Assembly (NCBI GenBank): GCA_963729715.1 | Contig: CAVSPA010000005.1 | Span: forward strand, 576,001 to 640,000 | Length of the DNA: 64,000 nt | Reading direction: 5' to 3' | Source: an uncultured delta proteobacterium | GTDB taxonomy: Bacteria > Desulfobacterota > Syntrophia > Syntrophales > UBA2185 | In this document: one piece after another, positions 26,002-55,865 of the stretch | How the letters are laid out: each line of letters starts with the position of its first letter | Numbering within the stretch: position 1 is the stretch's first letter | The notes under the pieces: model-generated | Databases searched by the model: none | What the model saw: the letters and a program-made list of their open reading frames with translations, nothing else | Told to the model about the DNA's origin: nothing | Translations under genes and position numbers: made by a program

Positions 26002-26009
26002 AAACTTGC

Positions 26010-26285: not shown

Positions 26286-26319
26286 TAAGTAGTCAGGAAA
26301 CTTTCCAGGAGAACAGACA

Positions 26320-26706
26320 ATGAGCAAAAGAAAAAGGATTCTTGTAGCCCGCCTAGGCATGGATGCCCACTGGAGAGGTAGCGTCGTGGTGGCAAGGGCT
26401 TTGAGGGATGCGGGGATGGAGGTGATTTATATAGGCAATCAGATGCCTGAGGGAATCGTAAAAGCCGCCATTCAGGAGAGCGTGGATATTATCGGATTAA
26501 GTTCTCTCTCAGGCAACCACATGATTCTGGCCCCGGAGGTCGTCCAAATTCTCAAAAGGGCGGGCGCAGACGATATAAAAGTAATCTTCGGAGGAACTGT
26601 ACCGCCCGAAGATATTCCCCTGCTGAAGGAAGCTGGGATCTAGGAAGTGTTCGGCCCAGGGACCTCCGTTAAAAAAATCATCGATTTCGTTAACTCCCTA
26701 GATTGA
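26320..26706 (+). pseudogene. Cobalamin-binding small subunit of acyl-CoA mutase with in-frame amber stop
   Basis: GMDAHWRG (DxHxxG), GLSSLSG, GGTVP; EAGI-TAG(26641)-EVFGPGTSVKKIIDFVNSLD-TGA. Confidence 0.78.
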
Positions 26707-39802: not shown

Positions 39803-40666
39803 ATGAGCGCTCAAGCACTGTTCTTAGTCATATCCGCTGCATTGTTGCATGCTGTATGGAATCTCATCTTTAAAAAAACGAACGGCAGACTTCCTTTTGT
39901 TTGGTTGGTTTCTTTAGCTTCCGCAGTCATCTATCTTCCGTTTGTCATTTGGCAACTTGTACAAAGTCAAGCACCGTTGACAGGCGTCACGTATGGCCTC
40001 GCATTGGCAAGCGCCGTACTCCATTTGTTATATTTTATAGTCCTGCAAGTCGGTTACAGAAAAGCGGACATTTCCGTTATATATCCGATGGCACGGGGAA
40101 CCGGCCCATTGCTTTCCGCAATGGGCGCCGTGTTATTTTTTGGAGAAAGACCGGGATGGATGGCTATTTCCGGCATGGTATTGATCGTGACCGGTGTTTT
40201 TATAATGACCGGACTGAGATTGAGCTTATCCGCTGATGAAAGATTGAAAACCGGGACCATTTACGGGACTGTCACAGGTTTGTTTATTGCCGCGTACACG
40301 TTATGGGATAAAACAGCCGTAACGGACTATAACGTTTCCGCATTGATTCTCACTTTTGCATCAATGCTGTTGCCGTTGTTGGTGTTGCTTCCCAAGGCAG
40401 TAAAAGAAACCCAGGAAATACGGCATGAGATACGACAACACTGGAAACATATTGTAGCCATAGCAGTGCTTGCGCCGCTTTCCTTTATTCTCGTCCTGAT
40501 GGCGCTAAAAACATCTCCCGTAAGCTATGTGGCGCCGGCACGCGAACTTAGTATTGTCTTTGGCGTATTTTTCGGAACCGGTCTTTTGAAAGAAGCAGAT
40601 GCAAAAAGGAGAATCATTGCCGCAATCATAATGCTGATCGGCATATCATTCTTAGCGATCGGATGA
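39803..40666 (+). CDS. EamA/DMT-family transporter
   Basis: SAALLHAVWN, YRKADISVIYPMARG, SYVAPARELS; ~10 TM. Confidence 0.9.
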   Translation: MSAQALFLVISAALLHAVWNLIFKKTNGRLPFVWLVSLASAVIYLPFVIWQLVQSQAPLTGVTYGLALASAVLHLLYFIVLQVGYRKADISVIYPMARGTGPLLSAMGAVLFFGERPGWMAISGMVLIVTGVFIMTGLRLSLSADERLKTGTIYGTVTGLFIAAYTLWDKTAVTDYNVSALILTFASMLLPLLVLLPKAVKETQEIRHEIRQHWKHIVAIAVLAPLSFILVLMALKTSPVSYVAPARELSIVFGVFFGTGLLKEADAKRRIIAAIIMLIGISFLAIG

Positions 40667-40880
40667 GCAGCGGAAGCGGAGTTCTTGTTTACTCCTTACT
40701 GCAATGTCATGTTTTCATTTCGGCCGCTCCCTACGGTTTATCTGAAGCCTTTGTTACGCATACTCTCCATCAGTAATTATCGACACCGCACACCAAATTG
40801 TGCGGCCATTATTACATTGACACACAAGACCGCTTATCCTATATTTTCTCCACATAAAAAGAAGTTCTTATCAAGAGACT

Positions 40881-41651
40881 ATGAGCTTACCGCTGCGCAG
40901 AACAGGACTGAACAGAGAGACGCCTTTTTTCTTCTCATGCTCTCAGTGTCTTCGTTGCTGCCACCACAAGAAAATCCAGGTCAACCCCTACGAAATCGCG
41001 CGCCTTGCTGCGAACCGGCGCCTGTCCACTGCCGAATTCATCGAACGCTACACACACGAAAGCGGAACCATTCTGAATTGGGAAGAAGACGGCGCCTGCG
41101 TCTTCCTCGATTCCCAGGGTTGCGGGGTCCATCCTGACCGTCCTCTTGTCTGTCGTCTTTACCCTCTCGGCCGCCATGTCCTTCCCTCGGGAGAGGAGAG
41201 TTTCTCCGAGATCGAGCCGAATGAGGACTGCAAGGGCGTCTATGGCGATGACGGCATGATCACGGCGTATCTCGACTCGCAGGGCGCCCGCCCTTTCATG
41301 GAAGCCGCCGACAGGTATCTCGATCTCTTCTGGAGGCTTTGCCTGATACTGGAAGAAGAGGCGGCTGAGCCCGAGAAACAAAGCGCCATCATGAGCGTGT
41401 TTAAGAAGTTTGCCGGCGGTGAACGCAACGGTGACATCGGGTTTGCCGATGTGGATGCCATAGTAGCCGCCTTCTGCGAAAAACTATGTATATCGGTACC
41501 GGAGAGTACTGACGACAAAATGTCGATCCACATACAGGCTGTTGAAGCCTGGGCAAATAACTCAGGGAGGAGACAAAAACATGAAGCAAAAAAAAAGAAA
41601 CGAACCGCCACAAAAGGATCCGGGAAAAAGCCCCTTAAGGCAAGCCATTAG
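40881..41651 (+). CDS. YkgJ-family CxxCxxCC Fe-S/Zn cluster protein (PF03692/FliB-like)
   Basis: FSCSQCLRCC, GACVFL...GCGVHPDRPLVCRLYP. Confidence 0.88.
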   Translation: MSLPLRRTGLNRETPFFFSCSQCLRCCHHKKIQVNPYEIARLAANRRLSTAEFIERYTHESGTILNWEEDGACVFLDSQGCGVHPDRPLVCRLYPLGRHVLPSGEESFSEIEPNEDCKGVYGDDGMITAYLDSQGARPFMEAADRYLDLFWRLCLILEEEAAEPEKQSAIMSVFKKFAGGERNGDIGFADVDAIVAAFCEKLCISVPESTDDKMSIHIQAVEAWANNSGRRQKHEAKKKKRTATKGSGKKPLKASH

Positions 41652-42162
41652 TGTCGCCACCGTTGTTGCCTCACTTGGAGCTTCCCTCGGCGTCAGCGTT
41701 ACTGACTTGATTGCCGCAGACCAGAAGGGCCCCATTCGCAATGAAGCGGTACAGCATAAAGATGCGGCGTCATGGGATTGGGGAAATATAAACGCAAACC
41801 AGTGGAAGCTCTCCGACCAGATCAAAACGCTCGAGGCATCTCAGTTCAAATTTTGGAACCAGGTCAAAGGGGAGTCACGGCAGGGAAAGATCAACATAAG
41901 GCAGTACAAGGAACTACAGGCAAACGAATACAAACTTGCAGACCAGATCAAGGATTTGCGGGCAAGCGATTACAATCTGTCGAACCAGTTTAAGTTCTGG
42001 CGGTCGAACATGCATAAGGGTGATCAGGCAGACCAGCTCAAAATCGACGGCCTCGAATCAAACGAACTGAAGATCGCAAACCAGCTCAAGATCCTGGAAG
42101 CCAACCAGCTCAAGATCTCAGAGCAGATGAAGATACTTCAGTCGAATCAGGATAAGCGCTGA
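41581..42162 (+). CDS. QxK-repeat protein with hydrophobic N-terminal leader/signal (possible RiPP-like precursor)
   Basis: ATG 41581 after GGAGG; AISVATVVASLGASLGVSV leader, then 14 Q-x-K units; followed by terminator. Confidence 0.75.
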   Translation: MKQKKRNEPPQKDPGKSPLRQAISVATVVASLGASLGVSVTDLIAADQKGPIRNEAVQHKDAASWDWGNINANQWKLSDQIKTLEASQFKFWNQVKGESRQGKINIRQYKELQANEYKLADQIKDLRASDYNLSNQFKFWRSNMHKGDQADQLKIDGLESNELKIANQLKILEANQLKISEQMKILQSNQDKR

Positions 42163-42194
42163 GTATAGATGAGGATACGTATCGGTAAGAAACA

Positions 42195-42225
42195 AAACCC
42201 CGCCCATCAAAAGTGGGCGGGGTTT
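42195..42225. terminator. Bidirectional intrinsic terminator
   Basis: AAACCCCGCCCA-TCAAAAG-TGGGCGGGGTTT between convergent genes. Confidence 0.85.
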
Positions 42226-42259
42226 CTAAAATTAATTTCTGTTGCGGCGTAAGGACCCA

Positions 42260-42964
42260 TCACTTCGGCTTCTTCCAGAATGGGCCGGTCTTACCGATTT
42301 CTTTCATGCCTTGAACCATCTCACGGGCGTATTCATGTATGTGTGACAGATAGTCCTTATCCATCCGCCGCCTGAAGAAAGGCCCGGAGAATAGTTTGCG
42401 TAATTGCTCCAGTGACAGGATGCCCTCGTCGGTGCCTTGGACAAAGGACTTCCAGTTGCGGACATGCTCTTCCGACCGGAAGAGATTCATCGTGCTTCAG
42501 GCATAGCCCGGATCTTCAAACCATTTCCAGAAGGGCACGGCTACATAGGCCGTGTATCCTGAGGCTTCGGCATTCAAAATGACCCCGTCCCGGATGACCA
42601 CACGGAGCGGCGCGCCGCAGTCCAAACAGGGGAAATCCACCGTCACCGCCTTGCCAGGGAATAGCCAGCAGACCGCCAGCGATTCGAATGCTCACTGGCC
42701 GAACCATTTCTGCTGACCGTCGATGGTGATCCGGTATTGGGTTGGAAGATTGTTGAAGGGAGCGAAGGAGACGATGTGGTCCGTGCGGGGATACAGCCAC
42801 GAAGGGATTCCCGAGGAGAACAGGTCGTGCATGACCTTCCGGCCTTCCTCAACGGGAAGCCCGAATTCTTGGGCAAGTTCCGTGTAAAAGGGCGCCTGCC
42901 CGGTTTCTACCATGCGTTTCATGATGATGTGAAACGCCTTCTCCAGCATTGGGGGTGCGCTCAT
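42260..42964 (-). CDS. MerB (organomercurial lyase)-fold protein with two selenocysteines (Sec91, Sec156)
   Basis: Three pieces join in one frame across TGA 42692-42694 and TGA 42497-42499 (234 aa): HTH-like N-term, PTQYRITIDGQQKWFGQ-U-AFESLAV, FPCLDCGAPLRV, PGYA-U-STMNLFRSEEH. Confidence 0.88.
42467..42484 (-). promoter_or_regulatory. SECIS for MerB-like Sec156
   Basis: CUCUUCC-GGUC-GGAAGAG perfect 7-bp stem; loop 19 nt after UGA. Confidence 0.8.
42659..42685 (-). promoter_or_regulatory. SECIS for MerB-like Sec91
   Basis: GAAU-C-GCUGGCG-GUC-UGCUGGC-U-AUUC; GGUC 17 nt after UGA, resembling the fdhF GCA-GGUC-UGC apex. Confidence 0.7.
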
Positions 42965-43021
42965 GGTATTTCCTCCTTTATAATTCTGTTTTTCAAATTC
43001 CCTATTCAGATGAAAGTCTAT

Positions 43022-43579
43022 CTACACGTCCTTCATAAACTCAATTGACGTCATACTTTTGAAAAGAGGATAAAGCGGGTTGTTGCGGTACAGGTTCAAT
43101 GTCGTTTCATGAATTTCCCTGGTGAAGGCGGCGCAGCAGTCTTCGAGGATATAGGCCTGGAAATCGTTAGACAAGGCGTCAAGGGCGGTTACGAGGACAC
43201 ACCAGTGCGTGCTTATGCCGCAGATTGCAACCGTGTCCACTCCGTGCAGTCTGAGAATCTGATCCATGTCCGTCTTGTAGAAGGCGCTGAACCTGCGCTT
43301 GGGACTGTAAATATCCGTCGGAGCCTGAATCAAGAGCTCCGTTACCTCCGCATCTGTTGTCCCGCGAATGGAGCGCTCTTTCATCTTTCCACCGAAGATG
43401 AAGTCTCCTTTCAAAAAACTGTCCATGGAAAAAATCACCGGGATGGACTTGCGGCGGGCAAATTCGGTAAGACGGTTGATATTTGGGCAGACGGCACGGG
43501 CAAGTGGGGTAATCGGAAAGCCCGGTTCAACTTCCAATGAGTCTTTAAGCATGTCGACGATAACAATTGCAGGTTTCAT
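43022..43579 (-). CDS. Isochorismatase/nicotinamidase-family cysteine hydrolase
   Basis: IVIVDM (Asp), KRRFSAFY (Lys), GISTHWCV (Cys) triad. Confidence 0.9.
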   Translation of the reverse strand: MKPAIVIVDMLKDSLEVEPGFPITPLARAVCPNINRLTEFARRKSIPVIFSMDSFLKGDFIFGGKMKERSIRGTTDAEVTELLIQAPTDIYSPKRRFSAFYKTDMDQILRLHGVDTVAICGISTHWCVLVTALDALSNDFQAYILEDCCAAFTREIHETTLNLYRNNPLYPLFKSMTSIEFMKDV

Positions 43580-43599
43580 TCACATCTCCGCCAAAATAA

Positions 43600-43630
43600 A
43601 AAGAGGCAAGTAATAACGCCTTGCCTCTTT
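43600..43630 (-). terminator. Intrinsic terminator/stem-loop after AbfD paralog
   Basis: AAAGAGGCAAG-N9-CTTGCCTCTTT followed by U-tract on minus strand. Confidence 0.7.
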
Positions 43631-43652
43631 CTTCTTCGTTTGATCTCCTTGA

Positions 43653-45104
43653 TTATTCTTCCTTCATGCCCATGAGCTTCTTGGCCATCTTCTTCTTAGC
43701 GTCAAAGTCCGTGAGCACGGAGATCATGAACCGCTGTGTCTGAGGGGCGCCGGCGCCGTGCCAGGTTCCCGTGCCATGCAGACCGGCTGACCAGTGCTGG
43801 AGGAACTTTGCGACCTTAAGGCGCTTGTCCGCCGGGGCTGCAGCCGCGAAAGCCTTTTTCAGCATGGGCCCGACCTCCGGGTCTTCCAGGTCCTTTTGCC
43901 TCGGCATGGTTACCACCAGGCCGCCACCGATATCTCCGGCGTTCTTGATGATTTCCCAGAATCCGTGGGCGATGTTCAGCTTGGCGGCATTGCCGAAGAG
44001 ATCGTCCGGAAGGAAGACGCCGGATCCCCTGGGTTCTTCCCTTCCCCGCATGGCTGCCGCGATAGCGCAGGCGTGGGACGTCTCGCTGAAGCGTACCATA
44101 TCAATGATCTTCTCCTGGATGTGAGGGACCTTGTCCACACCGGTGTATTCGGCGGCAAGCACGGTGCCTCCGATAACCAGGTCGGCGAATCCCACCTTGC
44201 AGGCGCCGCCGCAATTCATGCGGTGGGCCTTGGCGAACCGGGTAACCATTTTCCCGCAGAACTTGGTCTCGCCGCAGAGGAAAACTCGCTCCCAGGGAAT
44301 GAAGACATTGTCAAAAACCATCGTCGACGTTTCCCTCTGTCCGAAGACGGGATTCCCAATCTCGGCTTCGTCTTCACAAAATTCACGCTCCGCCGAGTAG
44401 GCATTGTATTGGCAGATGTATGTAAGCCCCGGTACGCTGTTTTGTACCGCAAAGGCCAGGGCAAAGGCCTCTTCGCCTTCTCTCAGGGCGCCTCCCGGCA
44501 GAACAAGTGTTTCATGCGAGCCTATGGCGCCGCTCTGGCTCACCTTGATCCCGCGTACTACGATTCCATCGTCACGTTTTTCAACAAGGTGAACGAATGT
44601 ATCGGGTTCGTCCTGCTGGGAAGGCCTCTTTTTCCTGTCTCCTTTTGCATCGGTTATCGCGCCGGAGACTGCGAGGTCGTTGGCCTGGGCGAATGCAAGC
44701 CATTTGTTAAATCTTTCATTATATTTCGTTTTCAAATCCCGGTCCATCTCCCACGTCGTAGAGGCGAGGCTGTTGAGTGCATCGCAACCCACGCAGCGGT
44801 AATTGCAGGTACCCACCGTCTGGCTCGTCAAGAGGGCCATCTCCTGCCGCATGTCGAGGTCGTGGATATTGCGTGCCACGTTAAGGTTGCGGTTGATCGC
44901 TTCCCCCGTCAGGTGCGATGTAGCGACCATGATTCCCTTGTATTTCGGGTCTTCAGCGAGCTCGTAAATCGCCGCGTTGGCCATAACCATGGAACGCGTA
45001 ATTTTGTTGTTGAGCAGATTCTTCACCCATTTACCCCCGCAATAGACGCGGGGCGACAGCTTCTTCATACTGTCCAGATATTCCTTTGCAGTCTTTAAAG
45101 CCAT
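43653..45104 (-). CDS. Divergent 4-hydroxybutyryl-CoA dehydratase/HpaB-family [4Fe-4S]-FAD protein
   Basis: GTCNYRCVG, TDAKGDR, VFDNVFIPWERVF, HRMNCGGACK, HGAGAP; same length as the canonical paralog at 53471. Confidence 0.85.
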   Translation of the reverse strand: MALKTAKEYLDSMKKLSPRVYCGGKWVKNLLNNKITRSMVMANAAIYELAEDPKYKGIMVATSHLTGEAINRNLNVARNIHDLDMRQEMALLTSQTVGTCNYRCVGCDALNSLASTTWEMDRDLKTKYNERFNKWLAFAQANDLAVSGAITDAKGDRKKRPSQQDEPDTFVHLVEKRDDGIVVRGIKVSQSGAIGSHETLVLPGGALREGEEAFALAFAVQNSVPGLTYICQYNAYSAEREFCEDEAEIGNPVFGQRETSTMVFDNVFIPWERVFLCGETKFCGKMVTRFAKAHRMNCGGACKVGFADLVIGGTVLAAEYTGVDKVPHIQEKIIDMVRFSETSHACAIAAAMRGREEPRGSGVFLPDDLFGNAAKLNIAHGFWEIIKNAGDIGGGLVVTMPRQKDLEDPEVGPMLKKAFAAAAPADKRLKVAKFLQHWSAGLHGTGTWHGAGAPQTQRFMISVLTDFDAKKKMAKKLMGMKEE

Positions 45105-45122
45105 AATATCCTCCGGATTAGT

Positions 45123-45443
45123 TTATTCTTTAGACTTGATGTCTATTATATATTTCGCCTTTCCGGTACCGGGAAAGGCCCCTATATTCTCTAAGGCAAT
45201 GTCCATGATTTCCATCAATTCGGTCTCGCTTCTCTTTCCGGATAATACGAGCAGCATGCCTTTTTCCTTCAGTCGAGCTTCAGCAATGAGACCCTTTTCC
45301 TGAAAACCCGGTATGAACTTCTTGTCAAGACAGCAATACATAAAACTCGCGAATGTGCCGCCCAGACCACTGTAGCTTCCCTGCATCTCGCGTCCGATCT
45401 TGACAGCTATCACTTCCAATCCCGCATCGTTCTCTAACGCCAA
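45123..45443 (-). CDS. Hypothetical protein
   Basis: 106-aa ORF filling the gap in a co-oriented cluster; GAGGG RBS, TTG start; YCC motif. Confidence 0.6.
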   Translation of the reverse strand: MALENDAGLEVIAVKIGREMQGSYSGLGGTFASFMYCCLDKKFIPGFQEKGLIAEARLKEKGMLLVLSGKRSETELMEIMDIALENIGAFPGTGKAKYIIDIKSKE

Positions 45444-45509
45444 CTTTGATCCCTCTCACCACTATTGAGACTTATTCGTTCTGGAAATTTCTTCCAAGGC
45501 CTTCCCGAT

Positions 45510-46844
45510 TTACATCTTTCCCCTGAGAGACTGGGCCGCGATGTGGATGGCGTCCCAGGCGCCTCCGAAGGGCGGCGCGTATGGAAGATCAAGGTAGCCG
45601 ACCTCATCCACGGAGAGTCCTGCCCATAGGGCGACAGAAAGGCTGCTGATTCGTTGAACGGCCCCTTTCTCACCGATGCACTGCCCGCCGAGAAGTTTTC
45701 CCGTCTTCTTGTCTCCGACAAGTTTCACGCCCATCTTCTCCCCTTTAGCCATGGGACGGCCAACGGGAAGACCCCAGATCATGGTGCTCACCGGCTGGAA
45801 TCCATATTTTGCGGCTTCCTCCTCCGTAAGTCCGGTGGCAGCCACCTCCAGTTTGAATACCTTGAAGGCCTGAGCACCCACGACACCCGGAAACTCCGCC
45901 GGGTAACCGCCGATGTTTTGACCGGCAACACGGCCCTGCTTGTTGGCAACATCGCCGAGGGGAAAATAGACCCACCGGCCGGCGACTTTGTGAAATACCT
46001 CACAGCAGTCTCCCACTGCGTAAACCCCTTCCCGGGATGTCTTCTGCCGGAGATCCACCGTGATGGCGCCACTTTCCCCTAAGGCAATTCCCATGGATTC
46101 GGCAAGCGCGGCATTCCGCTTTGTTCCCACTCCCATCAGCACGAGATCGGCATCCAGCTCGCCGCCGCTGGTATGAAGATTCAACCTGTATTCCTTCCCT
46201 TTTTCAATCGATAGAGGCTTCGTCTCCGGAAGGAATTCCACCTGGTTCTTGGCCAGCTCTTCCACTATCATCTTCGTGAATTCGGCATCCCACCGTACGG
46301 CCGGCCGGGGCAGGATGTCCATGACCTTCACTTCAATTCCCAGGCTTCGGAGCGCCTCACACATCTCCATACCGATATAGCCCGCACCGATCAGAACCGC
46401 TTTCCTGCAGCTCTTTTCGTTCAGGTAGGATTTCATCTTCAAGGCGTCGCTCAAGTCTCTGAAGACATAGACGCCGTCCATGTCTTTGCCCGGAATATCC
46501 AGGCGGATCGCTTCGGCCCCTGTCGCCATGACCAGGAAGTCGTAAGGAAGACTCGTGCCGTCTGATAACGAGAGAGATCCCTTTTGAGGATCGACACTGT
46601 CCACGCGCGTCTTGATTTTTACGTCGATGCCCGTTTTCTTGAATTCTTCCGGCGTACGGATGACGAGCCTCTTTGACTCTTTGATTACATCACCGATGTA
46701 ATAAGGCATCGGTCAGGCCGCATAGGAAACAAAGTCACCCTTCTCAATCATCGTCACTTCCAGAGAAGGGTTTCTTCTTTTGGCCTCGGCAGCCGAAGAC
46801 GGGCCTGCCGCCCCGCCTCCCACTATAACCAGTTTTTGACCCAT
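45510..46844 (-). CDS. CoA-disulfide reductase/NADH oxidase-like flavoprotein, selenoprotein (Sec44)
   Basis: True start ATG 46844 (GGAGG RBS): MGQKLVIVGGGAAG...FVSYAA-U(TGA 46713-46715)-PMPYYIG; 444 aa. The ORF track version lacks the FAD-binding N-terminus. Confidence 0.92.
46684..46702 (-). promoter_or_regulatory. SECIS for flavoprotein Sec44
   Basis: AUUACAUC-GGU-GAUGUAAU perfect 8-bp stem; loop 18 nt after UGA. Confidence 0.8.
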
Positions 46845-46909
46845 TTAATGTCCTCCACAGTTATCAATTTAATTGTATACTGTCCGTTTCAAGCCTTCTC
46901 CTGATTACA

Positions 46910-47452
46910 TCAATCCTTGAGGTTTTCCACGTTTTCACTGAAGGGCTTCGACGCCAGTTCATCCTTGTCGGATAGTACTAGGTCCGCCGCAATCCCGGCT
47001 GCATCAGTAATGACCTCACGGCAGTACAGCGCGTGTTCCCTGCACAGCCAGGTGCTCTGCCATGGCACCGTCAATTCCCTGCACAGGGTCTTTCCGTATT
47101 TCGCCTTGAAGCGGTTGGGGACCACATTGAATATCCTGTAAACACCGGGCTTCCCGTACAACTGGGCCTTCGACTTCATCGCCACATCCTTTTGATCCGC
47201 TCCTTCAGGGAGTGATGCCCTGCCGTGGACGGCGCTCACGGCCATTACCGCCCCTGCCAGGGCGCCGCAGGTGTCTCCGAAAAGCCCTATGCCGCCGCCA
47301 AACCCGGTTGCGACCTTTTTGACTGCCGGAGGCAATCCTGTATCCACCAGGGTTAGAACCGCTTCAGTGACGCATTCCGCACAATTATACCCTAAAGAAA
47401 AATTCTTGCGGGCACGCTGACGGATTTCCTCGATTTTCTCCTCTTTTGTCAT
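46910..47452 (-). CDS. C_GCAxxG_C_C family putative redox protein
   Basis: YNCAE, GFGGGIG..GDTCGALAG, TLCREL, YCREV. Confidence 0.9.
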   Translation of the reverse strand: MTKEEKIEEIRQRARKNFSLGYNCAECVTEAVLTLVDTGLPPAVKKVATGFGGGIGLFGDTCGALAGAVMAVSAVHGRASLPEGADQKDVAMKSKAQLYGKPGVYRIFNVVPNRFKAKYGKTLCRELTVPWQSTWLCREHALYCREVITDAAGIAADLVLSDKDELASKPFSENVENLKD

Positions 47453-47630
47453 TGATCCTTCCTCCTTTTTTAAGAAATCTTTCTAAGACTTTTGTCTCAG
47501 CACATTACCGCGTTAGTCGTCTCCCCTTAGAGGCTGTCTACGCGTCTCAACGCGAAATATCAATACTGAAAAACTGCGCATAGTATACGTATTTTTTCTA
47601 AGTAGTCAATCGGATCGCAATAGGATAAAA

Positions 47631-48911
47631 CTATAAAGACAAAAGATGGGATCTCAAGTTTGCCTTCTTCTTATTAAGCCTCAACTTTCTTCTAATATGA
47701 TTGCGATGAACCTCCACTGTCCTCACTGACGCATTCAACAGCTTTGCCATTTCTTTTGTCGTGCGTCCTTCTTTTATCAAATTAATGACCTTGATTTCCG
47801 TTGGCGTGAGATCGGGATATTTCGAAGAGAGGGTACGGAGGAAGGGGGAAACGATTTCATTGAGATTTCTCTCGAGTATTTTTAATTGATTCAATTGACG
47901 GCTATCAACTTGGGTCATTTTCAAATTCTCGATGTACGGGAGAATCAATTCCTTCATGTTGCAGGTAACCTTTTCCTCAAGCTCCGCTTTGTCTTCCTCT
48001 CTGCGCTTGAGCAGGACTTTCATGGCTGTATTGGCATCTTCAAGATTGCGCGAATTTTCTTCCAGCTCGCGCTCCCTCTTCTTCAACGCCTCTTCCATTT
48101 TTTTTCGTTCCGTAATGTTACGGGCAATGCCATGGATCGATACCCGTCTGCCGTTTTCTTCCATGCTCCGGGCGTTCACCTCCACCCATACGGCTTCACC
48201 GTCTTTTGTATACGTGAGAAACTCCTGTGGGTTCTGAACATCCACATCATCGAGCCTGTTTCGAATGAGCTTTCGCACTACAGGTAGATAATCCGCATCC
48301 AGAAGATTCTCTATGTTCAGCCCCAACAGCTGCGCCTGTTCATAGCCGTATGTCTTGGATGCGGCGGCATTGCAGGATAAGATCTTACCGTCGAAATCAA
48401 GTATCAATATCATGTCATTGGCATTTTCGAAGAGTTCCCTGTACTTCTGTTCCGATTGCCTCATTGCCTCTTGGGCCTTTCTCCGCTCGGTTATATCCGT
48501 AACTATCTCCACGATACCGATTGGGGAGCCTCTTCCGTCCCGCACGGGATAGCTGCGTAGAACCCAATTCTTCTTGTAAGATGAAAAATCGACTACTTCC
48601 TGGGGGTCACCCGTCTTAAGAGTTTTTACAGCCGGGCAAATTCGGCATGCCCTGCTTCTATTATGAAGCGCCTCATAGCAGTGTTTCTTATTCAATTTGC
48701 CGGGCGCCAGATTAAATGCATCAAGCATGGCCTTATTAGCCCAGATCACCCTCAGATCCTTATCAAGGTACAAGACGAGCTCGGTCATGGCATCGAGAAT
48801 GACCGATTTTTCCTGCTCTGATTTTCTCAGTTTTTCAAAGAGAGGAAGATATTTTTTTTCGGTTTGGTGGGTCGACAAACTTGATTTGTCAGGCTCCCTC
48901 ATTTTTTTCAT
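47631..48911 (-). CDS. PAS-PAS-LuxR transcriptional regulator
   Basis: Two PAS/PAC domains (DITERR/NITERK), LTPTE..V...IKEG.TTKE..HR..IRRKL HTH. Confidence 0.9.
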   Translation of the reverse strand: MKKMREPDKSSLSTHQTEKKYLPLFEKLRKSEQEKSVILDAMTELVLYLDKDLRVIWANKAMLDAFNLAPGKLNKKHCYEALHNRSRACRICPAVKTLKTGDPQEVVDFSSYKKNWVLRSYPVRDGRGSPIGIVEIVTDITERRKAQEAMRQSEQKYRELFENANDMILILDFDGKILSCNAAASKTYGYEQAQLLGLNIENLLDADYLPVVRKLIRNRLDDVDVQNPQEFLTYTKDGEAVWVEVNARSMEENGRRVSIHGIARNITERKKMEEALKKRERELEENSRNLEDANTAMKVLLKRREEDKAELEEKVTCNMKELILPYIENLKMTQVDSRQLNQLKILERNLNEIVSPFLRTLSSKYPDLTPTEIKVINLIKEGRTTKEMAKLLNASVRTVEVHRNHIRRKLRLNKKKANLRSHLLSL

Positions 48912-48954
48912 CTTTGCCTCTAATTACAATTGGGTTCGTCTTGTAATATTTTGA

Positions 48955-49980
48955 TTAATCCGGTTTTTCTTCCGGCAGTTTTTCTCCCAAAGCTAATCGG
49001 CAGATGTCGCTGATCATGAAATTCTTCATGCCCTCGTCACGCACCTTTTTATTAAGGGTTGCGAAGCACATGGCGCAGAGATAGACCATCGCCTCGGCGC
49101 CGTGATCCTTCGCATCCTTGATGTTCTTCTCCCGAAATGGCTCGAAGTTCTTTCCCCTTGGGAAGAGCTTCAGCCCCGGGCCTGCCACCTCCACACCGCA
49201 GCATATGGCATCGATACCGTCGTACTGCCGTTTTACCCGCTCCACCCCGACGAGGTCGAAGACTTCGTCCACCAGGTAATCCTTCTCAGGCGTATACCGG
49301 GAGGCGCAGGGACGCTGGTAGGCAACCTTCATGTTCAGGTTCCTCACTTTGCTTTTATTCTCCTTGAGATGGTCCCTTAGATATTCAAACAGGTGAACCG
49401 GCCGGAAGGGAAGCTTGATGCCGTATTCGGGCGCAACACCCTTAAGGACGGCATAGCAGTCGTCATGCACGAAGACGATTTCCTTTGCCCCGGACTTGGC
49501 CAAGTTGTCCACCATGGCTTGCAAGCGATTACTCATGATCGATTCGTCCCCCATGTGGGCGAAGAGGACATTGCAGAAGTAGTGTTTCCCTTTGAGGAGC
49601 GGCATCGTCTCGAAGAGCTGTCCCTGAATCGCCCAGGGCATGTTGCCCTGCATAACGCAGATGGACATTGCCCGCTCTTTGGGCGCTACCGGTTTCGGTT
49701 CACCTTCCGGCTTGAATCTTTCAGCCATCTGGACCTTCAGAGCCGGGTCGGTGAAGCTGCCGTCTTCTTCCAGTCGCTTCAGAATCAAATCGAAGGGACG
49801 GGCTCCCTTTGAGCAGTATTCATTACAGGCGATGCATGTCACACAGTCCGTGAGCCAAGCAACCTTTTCACCCAGCGCCAGTTTCTTAAATTCTCTGCCC
49901 CCGCTTTCCCTGTCGAAATCAAGGTAGCGGCATAGATTTAGACACTCACCACAATAATCGCATTTATCTTCGTGAAACAT
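48955..49980 (-). CDS. Fe-S protein with ferredoxin-like and CCG-like domains (HdrB/GlpC-like)
   Basis: CDYCGECLNLC, CVTCIACNEYC, YQRPC, ICCG, YLCAMC. Confidence 0.85.
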   Translation of the reverse strand: MFHEDKCDYCGECLNLCRYLDFDRESGGREFKKLALGEKVAWLTDCVTCIACNEYCSKGARPFDLILKRLEEDGSFTDPALKVQMAERFKPEGEPKPVAPKERAMSICVMQGNMPWAIQGQLFETMPLLKGKHYFCNVLFAHMGDESIMSNRLQAMVDNLAKSGAKEIVFVHDDCYAVLKGVAPEYGIKLPFRPVHLFEYLRDHLKENKSKVRNLNMKVAYQRPCASRYTPEKDYLVDEVFDLVGVERVKRQYDGIDAICCGVEVAGPGLKLFPRGKNFEPFREKNIKDAKDHGAEAMVYLCAMCFATLNKKVRDEGMKNFMISDICRLALGEKLPEEKPD

Positions 49981-50126
49981 AAATTCTCCTCAATAAATAT
50001 TACTTGTGCTCCAATCCGTCACAAGTTCTTACGTCCTGAGGATGCCGTGCTGTCGAGTTATTACCTATCAGAAAAAGGTCTCTGTCAATAGCATTTTTAT
50101 CCCTCCGTATAGTTCTGTCTCCACAG

Positions 50127-50603
50127 CTACTTTTCATTTTTCTTAGTCTTGCATTTGCTGCATAACCCGTAAAATTGTATGAGATGGTTAATGATTGTGA
50201 AATCATATTTCTTGGATAATCCGGCTTCCGTCTTTTTTAAGAGGGCCAACTCCTCATCGATAAAGTCCGCATAATCAATGACACGACGACAGCCCGTACA
50301 TACCAGATGATGATGGTGCGCCTCTCCCCGGCGCCCTTCGGCTATCTCGTATCTGGCCCTCCCGTCGCCAAAATCAAACTTATACACCAGACCGGTACTC
50401 ACAAGAACCTCCAGTGTTCTGTAAACGGACGTCAAGCCAATGGCAGGATAGGCGGTGTAAGCCTTTAAATAGATGTCCTCCGCGCTCAGATGCTCCTTCG
50501 CATCCGCCAGAACATTCATGATGGCCGCACGGCCCTGGGTTATCCGGTAGCCGTATCCCCTAAGTTGCCCATGCATGAGCGGCGGCTCCTGTCTATTCTT
50601 CAC
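50127..50603 (-). CDS. fur: Fur-family transcriptional regulator
   Basis: RITQGR, HLSAEDIY, SVYRTL, HHHHLVCTGC, GLCSKC. Confidence 0.9.
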   Translation of the reverse strand: MKNRQEPPLMHGQLRGYGYRITQGRAAIMNVLADAKEHLSAEDIYLKAYTAYPAIGLTSVYRTLEVLVSTGLVYKFDFGDGRARYEIAEGRRGEAHHHHLVCTGCRRVIDYADFIDEELALLKKTEAGLSKKYDFTIINHLIQFYGLCSKCKTKKNEK

Positions 50604-50622
50604 GAATTTTCCTCCTATTGTT

Positions 50623-50641
50623 AATGAAATTCATTTCCATT
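50623..50641. promoter_or_regulatory. Putative Fur-family box (autoregulation)
   Basis: AATGAAATT-C-ATTTCCATT 9-1-9 imperfect palindrome just upstream of the fur RBS. Confidence 0.6.
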
Positions 50642-51005
50642 TACTTCTTGCAAAAGCGTCTGTCAAGGATTAATATCCGACCGTGAGACTAACCTCGGCG
50701 TTCGCTTTCCACTCATCACCGGAAATTAATCAGATTTCATTGGATAAGGGCGCTATCCGAAATTTGAATTATATTTATTTCACGTATCGTGACCCGGAGA
50801 TTACGCTTGCATTATTATTTTTTCTATGGTGAGCTGAAAACCCATGTCAGTCTCAAGCTGCAACATCCAGTTTCCGTTTTGTTTTTCTTTTTGTGTTCCT
50901 TTATCCTCGTTGCAGATGACCGGCATTAGGGCATCCGTGGGTTTGTAAAGGAAGCCCGCTCTATAATGATCGCGGGTGAATATATTTTTCGAGAGGAGTG
51001 ACGCC

Positions 51006-52178
51006 ATGCAAAATTTCATATTCGATAATCCCACGAGGATCATCTTCGGGAAAGGAACGATTGCCCGCATAGGGAATGAAGTTAAACGATTCGGCACCAA
51101 TGTACTGCTCGTCTACGGTCAGGGAAGCATCAAGAAACATGGAATTTATGACCAGGTCATCTCGTCTCTTAAAGAAGCAAACCTTTCAATCGTGGAATTT
51201 CCCGGCGTCAAGGCAAATCCTGTTTTCTCCCATGTCCTTAAGGGAATAGAGCTTGCCCGCAGTCAAAACATCGACGTTGTCCTCGCCGTGGGTGGCGGAA
51301 GCGTGATCGATACGGCAAAGACAATAGCGGCAGGCGTAAAGGCAGAGCCGGGTGACGATATATGGGATTTTTTTACATTCAAGAAGAAGATACGAAATGC
51401 CCTTCCTGTCCTTACGGTGCTTACCGTGTCTGCCAGCGCCTCGGAAATGAATCCTACAGCGGTGATTACAAAGGAGGATGGGGCGCAAAAATTCAGTATC
51501 AGCTCTCCCTTGATACAGCCCAGAGCTTCAGCCCTGGATCCAACCGTGCTGTTTTCACTCACAGCCGAGTGCAGCGCTTACAGCGCCGTAGACGTAATCA
51601 CGCATCTGCTGGAAGGATATTTTAACAACACAGAGCCGAAAAGCCCGCTTCAGGACAGGCTGGTCGAAGGCATTATGAAAACAGTCATGGAAAGTACGGA
51701 GGTTATCCTCAAAGATCCTCAAAATTACAACGCCAGGGCCAACATGATGTGGTCGGCAACCTTGGCCTTTAACGGCTTGACGTCGGCAGGCATGGGATTG
51801 ATAAGCCTGCCTGCTCACATGATCGAACACTCGCTCAGCGCCCTCTACGACATTGCACACGGGGCCGGGCTGAGTATAATATTTCCCGGTTGGATGAAAT
51901 ATGCCGTGCACAAAAGGCCCGCGAAATTTGCCCGGCTGGGAAGGGAGATTTTTAATATCAGAGAAACCGATGACCTGAAGGCGGCAGTGGAAGGGATCAA
52001 TCGTTTAGAGCGATGGTTTTCATCCATCGGCAGCCCCACATCATTGAAAGAGGCCGGCATACCCGGATCTGATATAGACCGAATAGCAGAAAACTCAGCG
52101 GCGCTGGCCAAACTGTGGGTATTGAAAGACTACACCCGCGAAATCATCGTAGAAATATTGCATCTCTGCAAGGCGTAA
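51006..52178 (+). CDS. Iron-containing NAD(P)H-dependent alcohol dehydrogenase (BdhA/YqhD-like)
   Basis: NPTRIIFGKG, GGGSVID, DVITH, HMIEHSLSA.YDIAHGAGL. Confidence 0.92.
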   Translation: MQNFIFDNPTRIIFGKGTIARIGNEVKRFGTNVLLVYGQGSIKKHGIYDQVISSLKEANLSIVEFPGVKANPVFSHVLKGIELARSQNIDVVLAVGGGSVIDTAKTIAAGVKAEPGDDIWDFFTFKKKIRNALPVLTVLTVSASASEMNPTAVITKEDGAQKFSISSPLIQPRASALDPTVLFSLTAECSAYSAVDVITHLLEGYFNNTEPKSPLQDRLVEGIMKTVMESTEVILKDPQNYNARANMMWSATLAFNGLTSAGMGLISLPAHMIEHSLSALYDIAHGAGLSIIFPGWMKYAVHKRPAKFARLGREIFNIRETDDLKAAVEGINRLERWFSSIGSPTSLKEAGIPGSDIDRIAENSAALAKLWVLKDYTREIIVEILHLCKA

Positions 52179-52223
52179 GGAACAGCCGACAGCAGATGTT
52201 TTTGACATAAGGAGGGAGTCTGT

Positions 52224-53444
52224 ATGAAGCGGTATGGAGATTTTATCGCGTCCGAGGAAGATCTTGCTTTCCTCACCGTAATCCGGAAATACGTTGACAA
52301 CGAAATGATGCCGGTTCGTCTCAAGTTGGATGAAGATTATTCCGTCTTCGAAAAAGTATATGAGGGCCTGGTGAAGCTTGGTATCCAGAAGCGGGGATTT
52401 TCTCCCGAATACGGAGGTCTGGGAATCCGGTCCGCAACCACGGTCTGCGCCATCACTGAAGAATTATCCCGAGGGGACAGCGGCGTATCCCTTCATTCGC
52501 TTATCATACCTTGGTGTCTGGCGGGAGCGATGGGCGCGCGCAATAAAGTCCTCATGGATAAGTTCATTCCCATGTTCTGCGGGGATACACCACGCTGCGG
52601 CTGTCTTGCTATTACCGAACCCGCCGGGGGCTGCAATATCGAAGATGCGGCCGAACATGGCCTTACCATTCGAACCAGGGCCAGACTGGACGGGAACGAA
52701 TGGGTGATTAACGGCGAAAAAATGTGGCCCAGCGGCGCCAGCATTGCGGACATCTACTGTGTCATCTGCACGACCGATCCCACTCAGAAGGAAGATGGTA
52801 TGGCGCTCATCTACGTCCCCAAGGATGCCCCCGGGCTTTCCTTTGGCAAAGCGGAAGAAAAAATGGGCATGAAGGTGACGGACGTGAATACGGCCATCTA
52901 CTTCGACAACGTGAGGGTACCCAAAGAATATAGAGCCGGCGGAGCTGGCGTTGACTGGCAGCTTTTCCGGGCCAACATCGGCTGGGGACGACTGACGAGC
53001 GCTCCCATGACGCTGGGAAACGCCCAGGCCGTTTTGGAGATCGTGATAGAGTATACCAAGAATAGATTCTATGGAGGGAAGCCCGTCCGCAACCATTCCC
53101 TGCAGGCTGCCATGATTGCAGATATGGCGATCGGCATCGAATCAGCGCGCGCCCTTTATCTCTCCGTGGCAGCCATGTTCAACAACAGAAAGAAATACGG
53201 AAATCCCGGTGAGGATTATCTGATGGCTCGCGCCAGTGCCGCAAAGGTGTACGCCTGTGATGTCACCGAGACTGTATGCGACAGGGCTATGGAGCTCATG
53301 GGTTCATACGGGTATGCCCGCGATTACCATGTGGAGAAATATCTCAGGGACAGCAAGATTATCCAGATCTGGCTCGGCGGCGGACAATTGGGAAGGCTGG
53401 ACGTGGTCCAGAGCTACTACCCTTACGTAGAGAATCATAAGTAA
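52224..53444 (+). CDS. Acyl-CoA dehydrogenase-family protein (atypical active site)
   Basis: AITEP, NGEKMW, KMG, GSYGY...VEKYLRD; QIWLGG in place of QIYEGT. Confidence 0.88.
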   Translation: MKRYGDFIASEEDLAFLTVIRKYVDNEMMPVRLKLDEDYSVFEKVYEGLVKLGIQKRGFSPEYGGLGIRSATTVCAITEELSRGDSGVSLHSLIIPWCLAGAMGARNKVLMDKFIPMFCGDTPRCGCLAITEPAGGCNIEDAAEHGLTIRTRARLDGNEWVINGEKMWPSGASIADIYCVICTTDPTQKEDGMALIYVPKDAPGLSFGKAEEKMGMKVTDVNTAIYFDNVRVPKEYRAGGAGVDWQLFRANIGWGRLTSAPMTLGNAQAVLEIVIEYTKNRFYGGKPVRNHSLQAAMIADMAIGIESARALYLSVAAMFNNRKKYGNPGEDYLMARASAAKVYACDVTETVCDRAMELMGSYGYARDYHVEKYLRDSKIIQIWLGGGQLGRLDVVQSYYPYVENHK

Positions 53445-53470
53445 CACATCTTATATGAGGAGTAACTGAT

Positions 53471-54922
53471 ATGGCACTAAAGACACCTGAACAATATGAA
53501 GAGAGTCTGCGCAAGATGAATTTTAAGATCTACCTGATGGGTGAGCGGGTGGAAAATCCCGTGGACCATCCGATCATCAGGCCTTCGATGAATTCGGTAA
53601 AGATGACATACGCCCTGGCCCAGAATCCCGAGCATGAAGATTTGATGACGGCGACATCTCACCTCTCAGGAAAGAAGATCAACCGTTTCTGCCACTTGCA
53701 CCGGAACACCGAGGATCTGATAAAGAAGGTGAAGATGCAGAGGCTTTTGGGGCAGAAAACGGGGGCCTGTTTTCAGCGCTGCGTGGGCATGGATGCGATC
53801 AATGCCGTGGACAGCGTCACCTTCGAGATGGATATGAAGCTCGGCACCAAATACCACGAGCGATTCATCAAGTTCCTCTCGATGATGCAGGAAGAAGACC
53901 TCACTGTGGATGGCGCCATGACGGACCCCAAGGGTGACCGTAGCCTGACGCCCGGCAAACAGGCAGACCCTGATCTATATACGCGCGTGGTGGAAAGAAG
54001 AAAAGACGGCATTGTCGTCCGGGGCGCGAAGGCCCACCAGACGGGGGCAATCAATTCCCACTGGATTCTTGTCATGCCGACGATGACCATGGCAAAGGAG
54101 GACAGCGATTATGCCCTTTCCTTTGTGGCGCCTGCCGACGCGAAGGGCATATTTTACATTTACGGCCGCCAGTCCTGTGACACGCGGAAACTCGAAGGCG
54201 GTGAAATCGACGTGGGGAATAAAGAATTCGGTGGGCACGAGGCCTTGATGGTCTTTGACAATCTCTTTGTCCCCTGGGAAAATGTCTTCATGTGCGGCGA
54301 ATACGAATACAGCGGCGCCCTGGTGGAAAGGTTTGCCGGGTATCATCGTCAGAGTTACGGCGGCTGCAAGGTCGGCGTGGGCGACGTGCTCATTGGCGCG
54401 GCGGCACTGGCTGCAGATTACAACGGCGCGGCCAAGGCATCCCACGTCAAGGACAAGCTGATCGAAATGATGCACCTCAATGAGACCCTTTACGCCTGCG
54501 GGATCGCGTGTTCGGCGGAAGGACACGAGACGGCATCCGGAAACTATCTGATCGATCTCCTCCTTGCCAATGTCTGCAAACAGAATGTTACGCGTCTCCC
54601 CTACGAGATCGCGCGGCTTGCAGAGGATATAGCGGGTGGGTTGATGGTCACCATGGCCTCGGAGCAGGACCTGCGGCACCCTGAAATCGGCAAGGTAGTG
54701 GAAAAATATTTCAAAGGTGTTGCGTCGGTACCTACCGAGCATCGCTGCCGCGTGCTCCGATTGATTGAAAACGTCACGCTCGGGACGGCGGCGGTGGGAT
54801 ACCGCACCGAATCCATGCATGGCGCCGGCTCACCGCAGGCGCAAAGGATTATGATCTCACGGCAGGGCAATCTCGATTACAAAAAGAGGCTGGCTAAAGA
54901 AATCGCCGGAATCAAAGATTGA
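53471..54922 (+). CDS. abfD: 4-hydroxybutyryl-CoA dehydratase/vinylacetyl-CoA isomerase
   Basis: CFQRCVGMD, KAHQTG, GHEAL, HRQSYGGCK, TESMHGAGSPQAQ all canonical. Confidence 0.9.
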   Translation: MALKTPEQYEESLRKMNFKIYLMGERVENPVDHPIIRPSMNSVKMTYALAQNPEHEDLMTATSHLSGKKINRFCHLHRNTEDLIKKVKMQRLLGQKTGACFQRCVGMDAINAVDSVTFEMDMKLGTKYHERFIKFLSMMQEEDLTVDGAMTDPKGDRSLTPGKQADPDLYTRVVERRKDGIVVRGAKAHQTGAINSHWILVMPTMTMAKEDSDYALSFVAPADAKGIFYIYGRQSCDTRKLEGGEIDVGNKEFGGHEALMVFDNLFVPWENVFMCGEYEYSGALVERFAGYHRQSYGGCKVGVGDVLIGAAALAADYNGAAKASHVKDKLIEMMHLNETLYACGIACSAEGHETASGNYLIDLLLANVCKQNVTRLPYEIARLAEDIAGGLMVTMASEQDLRHPEIGKVVEKYFKGVASVPTEHRCRVLRLIENVTLGTAAVGYRTESMHGAGSPQAQRIMISRQGNLDYKKRLAKEIAGIKD

Positions 54923-54955
54923 CCCGGGATGTAAGATGAAAAGAAAGAGAAGAAG

Positions 54956-55429
54956 ATGCCAAACGAAGATAAAGACTTATTGGAAGAGTCCCTGACCGGC
55001 TACAAGGAAAAAATAGTACCAATCACAAAAACTACCCTGACCTGGGATAGGGAACTCATCTTTACAGGCACGACCCAGCAGGGATATGAGATAGCATTCG
55101 ATGCCCATGCCCAATGGGGCTGCAAGCCAACGGAGGCTCTGCTTCTGAGCCTCGCCGGTTGCATGGGGATCGACGTGGTAATGTTTTTACAGAAGATGAG
55201 GGTCCAACTGACAAGTTTCAAGATGGAGCTTGTGGGAGAGCGAAATCCGACACCGCCGCAGTATTTCAAGGCCATCGAGATCGTCTTGCATATAGGAGGG
55301 AAGAACCTTAATGCCCAGAAGGTCGATCGTGCCGTTTCCTTATCCCATGACAAGTATTGTTCTGTCTATAACACCCTCCGCAAAGATTTGGAAATGAATG
55401 TCCGCTACGTACTCGAAGAATCAAAATAG
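54956..55429 (+). CDS. OsmC/YhfA-family protein
   Basis: PTEALLLSLAGCMGIDV, KYCSV. Confidence 0.88.
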   Translation: MPNEDKDLLEESLTGYKEKIVPITKTTLTWDRELIFTGTTQQGYEIAFDAHAQWGCKPTEALLLSLAGCMGIDVVMFLQKMRVQLTSFKMELVGERNPTPPQYFKAIEIVLHIGGKNLNAQKVDRAVSLSHDKYCSVYNTLRKDLEMNVRYVLEESK

Positions 55430-55608
55430 CCGATCTCATATAGCCCCAAGTACGGTGCCCCGATTCTACTGGGCACCATGGTTATTTATAAGCTAACTAC
55501 GTCTATAAACAACTACTCCCCTTTCATTTCTTGTGTATCCTTTTTCACACGCTTCTAGTCTAAAGAGTTAAGGCGAGAGAAAAAAAGAATTTGTCAAGGA
55601 GGAATGAA

Positions 55609-55782
55609 ATGGAAAAGATGTTTGGTTCAATGATGCAAGGATTCATGAGCAGTATGTCGAAGGACGATAAGAACAAGATGACGGCGATGGGCCCATCTTG
55701 TAATATGAAAGCTATGCCTGAAGAGGATAAGAAGGCAATGATGGAAAAGATGAATGCATGTTGTGGAAGCAAGATGGACTGA
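55609..55782 (+). CDS. Small Met-rich hypothetical protein
   Basis: AGGAGG RBS; 57 aa with 14 Met and a CCG near the C-terminus. Confidence 0.6.
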   Translation: MEKMFGSMMQGFMSSMSKDDKNKMTAMGPSCNMKAMPEEDKKAMMEKMNACCGSKMD

Positions 55783-55865
55783 CATCATCTATTGAGGATA
55801 AGGAGAAAAGCAAAATATTTACTGGTGTTATGGAAATGAATCGTGGCTGAGGCTTGCGGGAGAAT

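Follow-up and report, generated by a model that had tools for sequence, protein, structure and literature searches.

AbfD, the 4-hydroxybutyryl-coenzyme A (CoA) dehydratase, is a textbook anaerobic radical enzyme that is used as a pathway marker. In a mutagenesis study, its Tyr296 was reportedly the source of the radical and Glu455 the base that serves it. The available text of one study reports both Y296 and E455 as important for dehydratase activity (10.1101/2020.02.05.935528), and that of another describes a flavin-semiquinone mechanism for this type of dehydratase (PMC13101534). Here we describe an AbfD-family gene with neither residue, found in a window of 64,000 nucleotides (contig CAVSPA010000005.1 of assembly GCA_963729715.1, positions 576,001 to 640,000) from an uncultured delta proteobacterium of the Syntrophales. 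Like the AbfD enzymes of Clostridium aminobutyricum (1u8v) and Nitrosopumilus maritimus (6vjr), the variant has the cluster ligands and E257. It differs from them in carrying a Cys for Y296 together with an insertion, no E455 segment, a Ser for T190 and an extra Cys (C107), and also in having a predicted small subunit and a predicted regulated operon that includes a selenocysteine (Sec) reductase. The locus is made up of two adjoining units, a conserved core module and a lineage-specific pair of hydrolase and MerB-fold genes. The variant itself (Cys-AbfD) belongs to a known enzyme family and has a new predicted subunit.

Eight genes run in the same direction on the minus strand between 42260 and 49980, as described in the initial annotation, which was made from the sequence and its open reading frames (ORFs). 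The title of that annotation listed seven of them; the eighth, orf106 (45123-45443), is without a family assignment and proved to be central. The closest named relatives of the locus are metagenome-assembled genomes (MAGs) of Syntrophales/Syntrophaceae. Gene families were assigned by profile cut-offs (Pfam, NCBIfam/TIGRFAM). Below, related stretches are labelled L, the genome of the window is G000 and its contigs are labelled C. All co-occurrence counts come from kin and are not independent, and no test statistic is attached to them. The two genes of the enzyme and its predicted partner are the following:

43653..45104, minus strand: AbfD-family flavin adenine dinucleotide (FAD)/[4Fe-4S] enzyme of a distinct subfamily (alignment to 1u8v, residue tallies, clade support)
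45123..45443, minus strand: orf106, an unannotated 106-residue alpha/beta protein, predicted accessory subunit of the AbfD variant (adjacency, complex model)

The enzyme had been called an altered AbfD from the start, and its alignment to 1u8v supports that description. Homology to the C. aminobutyricum protein is full-length (E 7e-114), and the four [4Fe-4S] ligands of 1u8v (C99, C103, H292, C299) are present as C100, C104, H294 and C302. At the position of Y296 stands Cys298 (codon 44211-44213), with a one-residue insertion, in the motif HRMNCGGACK; tallied over 74 loci, position 298 is Cys in 72, Tyr in one and Gln in one. The E455 segment reads GTWHGAG instead of RTESMHGAG, with a four-residue gap. 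The dyad E257/T190 is half kept, with the Glu (E258) present in 73/74 loci and the Thr replaced by Ser191 in 76/76. H294 and C302 are each found in 74/74 of the loci tallied, and H443 and W448 in 73/73. At L074:7120-10446 the module is decaying, with a frameshifted gene for the C-GCAxxG-C-C protein (cgc), a broken reductase and an eroded orf106; in this one case AbfD is intact and has Tyr, the canonical residue, at 298.

A set of 156 sequences was thinned at 82% identity to 38 representative rows, and in the resulting tree the motif-bearing variants form a clade on a long stem (support 100/99) that takes in 31 of the rows. Among the matches listed, this clade ranges over Desulfobacterota, Chloroflexota, Bacillota, Aquificota and one Bathyarchaeia MAG. 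The scan with the motif pattern selects for the Cys motif and thus gives the range of the subfamily, not its conservation; flanking DNA was full for 80 of the 119 stretches. Cultured hosts with Cys-AbfD records belong to Pelotomaculum, Desulfosporosinus, Desulfofundulus and Desulfovirgula, and named members include P0282 of Pelotomaculum thermopropionicum SI and P0290 of Desulfosporosinus orientis DSM 765. Databases label these proteins as dehydratase, aromatic ring hydroxylase or 4-hydroxyphenylacetate 3-hydroxylase domain protein. An identity as the flavin monooxygenase HpaB was rejected on profile scores (TIGR02309, 170.7 against a cut-off of 480.2; TIGR02310, 78.7 against 885.2), and the protein is far nearer to 1u8v than to HpaB structures. 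No common functional neighbour was found at the distant Cys-AbfD loci. At L212:8776-10325 and six to eight more of them, two or three unannotated genes recur next to the enzyme, one of which we take to be PHP-phosphoesterase-like.

The predicted partner, orf106, has no match in Pfam, NCBIfam or the Atlas. It has 190 homologues, and the 120 listed are unnamed or labelled hypothetical. In all 50 of the 50 loci that carry it (49 by script, L133 by coordinates), orf106 lies immediately 5' of the AbfD variant. Its structure model is confident (pLDDT 91.8), and a fold search returned a best Z of 4.6 (root-mean-square deviation (rmsd) 5.2 over 82 aligned residues), with no Foldseek E under 0.001. We found no solved complex of the variant with orf106, which is without a match in the PDB. 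When the two proteins were modelled together, the complex scored 0.83, compared with 0.00 for the best control; 116 of 157 solved pairs and 2 of 215 mismatched pairs attain that mark, rates that are only roughly applicable here, with our own alignments. The runs share at least 98% of contacts, and the pLDDT of the partner is at least 86. In the model, the interface uses orf106 residues that are invariant or nearly so (G26, G29, T30, A32, P45, G46, N86). On the enzyme side, the interface residues do not clearly separate variants with orf106 from those without: position 138 is aromatic or Met in the former, mostly Gly or Ser in a close group lacking orf106, and Tyr in a distant group lacking it. 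The complex model supports the predicted binding of orf106 to AbfD, and we consider it likely that the two proteins bind each other.

The other genes of the locus, and the hairpins that follow their in-frame TGA codons, are listed here (SECIS, Sec insertion sequence; U, Sec):

45510..46844, minus strand: Sec flavoprotein of the CoA-disulfide-reductase/NADH-oxidase type, 444 amino acids, U44 at TGA 46713-46715 (alignment, catalogued family)
46684..46702, minus strand: SECIS-like hairpin after U44 (stem with GGT/GGC loop conserved in 36 loci)
46910..47452, minus strand: C-GCAxxG-C-C protein (cgc), split-Soret-cytochrome-like fold, predicted Fe-S protein, no Sec (TIGR01909, model)
47631..48911, minus strand: PAS-PAS-LuxR regulator, putative activator of the module (profile matches)
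48955..49980, minus strand: ferredoxin and CCG-domain Fe-S protein (ccg), variable module member (PF02754, PF13183)
43022..43579, minus strand: isochorismatase-family cysteine hydrolase, lineage-specific neighbour (PF00857, alignment)
42260..42964, minus strand: MerB-fold protein, 234 amino acids, with U91 (TGA 42692-42694), E94 and U156 (TGA 42497-42499), lineage-specific neighbour (PF03243, alignment)
42659..42685, minus strand: SECIS-like hairpin after U91 (GCTGGC-GGTCT-GCTGGC conserved in 51 loci)
42467..42484, minus strand: SECIS-like hairpin after U156 (CTCTTCC-GGTC-GGAAGAG conserved in 52 loci)

The core module recurs across the Syntrophales in shuffled orders, with 20 arrangements, and is in this sense the conserved cluster that had been proposed. 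Among the 76 loci with the AbfD variant, some of them on short contigs, the gene seen most often is orf106 (50 loci), followed by luxR (43), the reductase (40), cgc (39), ccg (19), MerB (12) and the hydrolase (10). Of these, 35 are core loci (cgc, reductase and orf106 all present); 33 of them have luxR, 10 have MerB and 25 lack MerB. We also counted the genes in 151 genomes of the order, using identity cut-offs of 84% for AbfD and 61% for the reductase and excluding one MerB match without TGA. The AbfD variant is present in 37 genomes and orf106 in 39; 36 have both, adjacent in 35. Orthologues of cgc occur in 63 genomes, including 36 of the 37 with the AbfD variant (within 12 kb in 27), and the close reductase clade in 38, including 30 of the 37 (within 12 kb in 25). 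Sec-MerB is found in 18 genomes, 14 of which have the AbfD variant; in 8 the two are within 12 kb, all in the home family, and 23 of the 37 AbfD-variant genomes have no Sec-MerB. None of the 300 genomes sampled across the phylum yielded an orf106.

These counts bear on the reading given in the initial annotation, which took the eight genes as one selenium-dependent catabolic or detoxification route, with the Sec reductase maintaining the double-Sec lyase in its reduced form. MerB does stay with the module in all 12 of the closest loci, even where the genes are reordered (L067, L073). The overlap in genomes (14/18, among kin that are not independent), the relative of the CCG protein that follows MerB in L017/L022/L050 and L043, and the little room for a promoter between the hairpin after AbfD and the start of the hydrolase would also fit such a route. 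Against this stand the 25 of 35 core loci that lack MerB and the 37 of 48 MerB loci that have neither cluster orthologues nor common neighbours. In a tree of these 48 full-length loci, the 11 with cluster orthologues form one clade that includes the window (Shimodaira-Hasegawa-like approximate likelihood ratio test (SH-aLRT) 82); the other MerB loci show no common neighbours except a distant CCG gene in two lineages. Moreover, a terminator-like hairpin lies between the two units, and at L064 AbfD lies about 8 kb away from the hydrolase and MerB, with other genes in between. In other genomes, the genes of the core module are found together, and MerB and the hydrolase are joined to it in one clade only. 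We consider a single eight-gene pathway, with the reductase serving MerB, improbable.

The predicted transcription signals also divide the locus in two. We relied only on conserved sites, because scans for sigma-70 promoters and terminators yield no more sites than shuffled sequence. The elements of the locus are as follows:

47555..47603, minus strand: operator array of four TACGTA-like repeats at 11-bp spacing, ending in a TTG -35 element (conserved in 34/37 loci)
43598..43632, minus strand: intrinsic-terminator-like hairpin closing the core module (13-bp stem, -18.7 kcal/mol, then a T run)
42194..42226, minus strand: terminator-like hairpin after the MerB gene (13 pairs, 8 of them G-C, with a T tail)

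The array sits behind luxR in 34 of 37 loci, regardless of which gene comes first. It is unique in the genome: the repeat matrix, whose training set included near-identical relatives of the window, gives 61.9 for the window site and 22.5 for the next genomic site. We are quite confident that the PAS-LuxR protein controls the module by binding this array at the -35 box, where it would act as an activator of the promoter. A -10-like element lies 3' of the array in 31 of 34 loci and is not found in the window, where about 37 nt are deleted between 47553 and 47552 relative to 7/7 close relatives; a TTGACT-16-TATACT consensus overlapping the array remains. Lacking the -10 box, the promoter of the window may be weak or silent, though the deletion may also be an assembly error. 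The stem-loop that had been proposed at 43600-43630 to uncouple the last two genes is real (43598-43632): of 20 loci that were folded, 19 have a hairpin after the AbfD stop, whether or not a hydrolase or MerB gene lies beyond it, and this hairpin would be expected to terminate transcription. Upstream of MerB (49 loci), no conserved motif was found besides the ribosome site, and Rfam has no match within 40000-56000.

Two genes of the locus had been read as recoded selenoproteins, and this reading stands, with three UGA-Sec codons in total: U91 and U156 in the MerB-fold protein and U44 in the flavoprotein. After each of the three comes a hairpin with a G-rich loop, conserved and nearly frozen in sequence across related loci. 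The genome has the Sec machinery (selA/selB/selC/selD) that recoding calls for; selA, selB and selD score above their cut-offs and the tRNA-Sec is present.

The Sec flavoreductase belongs to a family that is already known, being catalogued among selenoproteins in the available parts of PMC13188914 and PMC9312934; its motif is UPMP here, whereas the family is listed with UGxP. Its closest structure is the CoA-disulfide reductase (CoADR) 6ruz (E 8.7e-97), whose catalytic Cys aligns with U44, and it has a YAPPF tail. TGA is found at U44 in all 34 orthologues whose best alignment spans the site (6 others do not span it). With a Sec at the catalytic position, a SECIS-like hairpin and the Sec machinery, the protein qualifies as a Sec FAD-dependent oxidoreductase of the CoADR/Nox type; its scores fall below the CoADR equivalog cut-offs (NF007123, 381 against 458; TIGR03385, 359.5 against 578.8). 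The window encodes a second CoADR-type flavoprotein, of 563 amino acids and in the Cys form, at 6469-8160 on the minus strand, beside genes read from the sequence as YeeE/YedE-like membrane genes (4691-5772).

The cgc protein is a member of the C-GCAxxG-C-C family (TIGR01909, 57.1 against 47.4). Its model shares the fold of split-Soret cytochrome c (1h21; Z 12.3, rmsd 3.8 over 152 aligned residues) but has no haem-binding CxxCH motif. Six cysteines (C24, C27, C62, C124, C137, C144) are invariant among 21 sequences, and we infer that they mark an Fe-S centre. The ccg orthologues take several positions in the 19 loci that have one. A Fur/PerR-family regulator lies upstream of ccg in the window (50127-50603, minus strand), and Fur-type genes also lie 3' of cgc orthologues in L285 and L286.

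Our best overall explanation, in which we place about half of our confidence, is that the two units work side by side. Unit A (47603 to 43598) would be an operon under the upstream PAS-LuxR, and its product would be a non-canonical FAD/[4Fe-4S] acyl-CoA enzyme composed of Cys-AbfD and its own small subunit, orf106. A low-pKa Cys without a base would replace the Tyr296/Glu455 pair, and for this reason the enzyme probably does not dehydrate 4-hydroxybutyryl-CoA, a reaction that would be covered by a canonical paralogue at 53471-54922. Our best guess for its activity is thiol-redox-coupled acyl-CoA chemistry. More specifically, and only tentatively, Cys298 could be redox-active between FAD and cluster, with the enzyme eliminating a group from, or rearranging, a substituted acyl-CoA that probably bears sulfur. 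The Sec flavoreductase would take NADH and, with cgc and optionally the CCG protein, either keep the Cys298 thiol or the cluster reduced or recycle a CoA-(per)sulfide product. Unit B (hydrolase and double-Sec MerB) would be a lineage-specific addition past the terminator, expressed at most by read-through. A precedent for eliminating a non-hydroxyl group from C4 is BbuA, the gamma-butyrobetainyl-CoA trimethylamine (TMA)-lyase, a flavoenzyme of the acyl-CoA-dehydrogenase fold (PMC8364193, available text). At about 10% identity to AbfD (same source), it serves as an analogy only, and the module has no conserved CoA transferases.

A bolder version is speculative and, to us, quite improbable. Cys-AbfD would start flavin radical catalysis from a Cys (thiyl) instead of a Tyr and break the C-S bond of an acyl-CoA; it would work with its new subunit and be reset by the Sec flavoenzyme through an Fe-S carrier. 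In one lineage, this reductant chain would also serve a di-Sec organometal lyase in a mercury-methylating syntroph.

The insertion at Cys298 invites a different reading, since it makes a second CxxxC (C298-x3-C302) that mirrors C100-x3-C104. C298 could then be an extra cluster ligand and His294 be freed as a base. The enzyme would become an Fe-S-wired acyl-CoA dehydrogenase or enoyl-CoA reductase, with orf106, cgc, the CCG protein and the Sec flavoprotein passing electrons between it and NAD(H). The partners are all Fe-S or flavin redox proteins; most hosts are syntrophs or sulfate reducers, among them records of Pelotomaculum thermopropionicum SI, Desulfosporosinus and Syntrophomonas; and at L173 and L310, two distant loci, Cys-AbfD also has cgc-type genes next to it. 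His294 is invariant, however, as would be expected if it still ligated iron. In addition, a catalytic Sec in CoADR-type flavoproteins is typical of disulfide or peroxide chemistry, not of a plain electron relay. We regard electron transfer of this kind as unlikely, if somewhat less so than the bolder version above.

About ten AbfD paralogues, differing in their active sites, are encoded in the genome, which would suit a more ordinary account. The variant could be a vinylacetyl-CoA isomerase, or else a dehydratase in which other residues stand in for the lost ones (His443 for Glu455). The rest would be a general redox-stress set that came to share a promoter by accretion. In some genomes without the variant, cgc orthologues do adjoin Fur/PerR-type and Suf-like genes (unannotated ORFs), and the reductase family is near-universal in the order. 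Such an account leaves unexplained the always-adjacent predicted binding partner, the retention of the set through reorderings and the long-stem clade with its own invariant residues, and we give it little weight. The paralogues themselves (on contigs C3, C4, C6, C7, C9, C17 and C18 of G000) have differing active-site motifs and form an unexplored radiation; some of the genes are duplicated between contigs (C4/C9). The canonical one is part of a divergent operon on the plus strand that adjoins the module (50976-54922), following genes for an Fe-alcohol dehydrogenase and an acyl-CoA dehydrogenase; it has the motifs HRQSYGGCK and RTESMHGAG.

Several observations weigh against the two-unit explanation, or limit how far it reaches. 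Beyond the Syntrophales, Cys-AbfD is mostly solitary, without its module partners, and a search of 28 other Cys-AbfD genomes turned up orf106 in only 3, in each directly upstream of the enzyme. It follows that neither the subunit nor the reductase is required across the whole subfamily; as predicted from the model, orf106 is an accessory and not a universal subunit of Cys-AbfD. The wider reductase family is present in 116 of the 151 genomes and cgc in 63, many of them without the AbfD variant, which indicates separate roles for both. The HYYPG segment of 6ruz, to which we assign a role in CoA-disulfide reduction, is replaced by RPMAKG in the reductase, and CoA-disulfide may thus not be its substrate. 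The conserved neighbours of the module include no CoA ligase, CoA transferase or transporter that would hint at the substrate. The link between MerB and HgcA described below is weaker outside the home family (7/10), and all counts are drawn from kin. We also tried to read a substrate from recurring neighbours (MtnA-like genes in 16/76 loci, methylmalonyl-CoA mutase in 13/76, TrmJ in 19/76). We treat these as synteny because they are confined to subsets of kin and in part lie on the opposite strand or beyond the hairpin.

For unit B, the closest described proteins are MerB (1s6l, 3f0o), MerB2 (5c17) and SaoL. The MerB-fold protein has the PF03243 domain (66 bits against 27), and in the alignment U91 and U156 take the positions of the catalytic Cys pair of MerB, and Glu94 that of the Asp. 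It differs from MerB and MerB2 in having Sec for both Cys, Glu for Asp and an extra C113xxC116, and no merA, merR or merT was found in the genome. Among 56 related loci, TGA is present at U91 in 51 of the 52 spanning it and at U156 in 52 of 53, and Glu94 is kept in 51/52. Database relatives (678 proteins) break at residues 90, 155 and 159, as gene callers stop at UGA. The exception among the loci (L058:8001-8666), from an actinobacterial MAG, has Cys at both positions and would be easier to express for assays.

An identity as the MerB organomercurial lyase equivalog was rejected, since Sec91/Glu94/Sec156 stand in place of Cys/Asp/Cys and the score is low (NF009710, 29.1 against 193). The locus is not a mer operon, as had been stated from the outset: no MerA scores above the cut-off (best 344.5 against 454.45) and neither MerT nor MerR has a match, in a genome rated 100% complete. 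SaoL is described in the available text of 10.1101/2022.07.06.499078 as a MerB-like selenoprotein of anaerobes that gene callers cut, with one Sec in a CU motif and Cys99/Asp102. Here there are two Sec, in AUS and QUA contexts rather than a single CU motif, and no SAO genes at the locus; with a score of 30.3 against a cut-off of 140 (NF040728), we rejected this identity too. SaoB and SaoC have no match in the genome, and control genomes gave none either.

The genome has an HgcA above the cut-off (G000 C5:493625-494614, L264), with a ferredoxin after it and a small regulator-like gene before it, and its host is likely a mercury methylator, as judged from sequence. HgcA is present in 15 of the 18 Sec-MerB genomes, compared with 71 of the 151 overall. 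It is plausible that the MerB relative binds or cleaves organometals such as methylmercury, independently of unit A; we rate this at slightly below an even chance. The hydrolase keeps the D9/K94/C127 triad, while the two His of 3eef are F55 and R69; it is found in 51 of the 151 genomes, mostly elsewhere in the genome. A distant relative of the CCG Fe-S protein (33-37%) lies directly 3' of the double-Sec MerB in two other lineages, and we note these sites (L017:2572-3603, L022:8807-9838, L050:3345-4418, L043:1584-2243) as encoding a candidate reductant for MerB.

Two further features of the window lie outside the module. At 23119-26643 we read from the sequence a gene for a methylmalonyl-CoA-mutase-like large subunit and a B12-binding gene, split by a transposase-like ORF on the opposite strand. 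At 41542-42162 (plus strand) is a 206-residue ORF with no family above cut-off, whose product has repeated helical units rich in Q/K/E and a possible signal segment; its orthologue in L045 is 86% identical.

The double-Sec MerB is absent from the available catalogue rows of PMC13188914 and PMC9312934 and from the available text of the SAO preprint (10.1101/2022.07.06.499078), and was not evident in a literature search. Nor were the Cys-AbfD subfamily, orf106 or the operon evident in that search, which covered few subscription papers and did not extend to supplements, where they may be listed.

A subfamily of AbfD spread over several phyla, with Cys in place of Tyr, suggests that syntrophs and sulfate reducers carry out acyl-CoA chemistry that has yet to be assigned, and that some database labels are wrong. 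The proposal is testable, since cultured hosts exist and the module offers a predicted partner subunit, a regulator together with its likely operator, and a chain of reductants. It also gives the C-GCAxxG-C-C family a concrete context. Finally, the double-Sec MerB, in anaerobes that carry hgcA and lack merA, is a candidate for the anaerobic handling of methylmercury.

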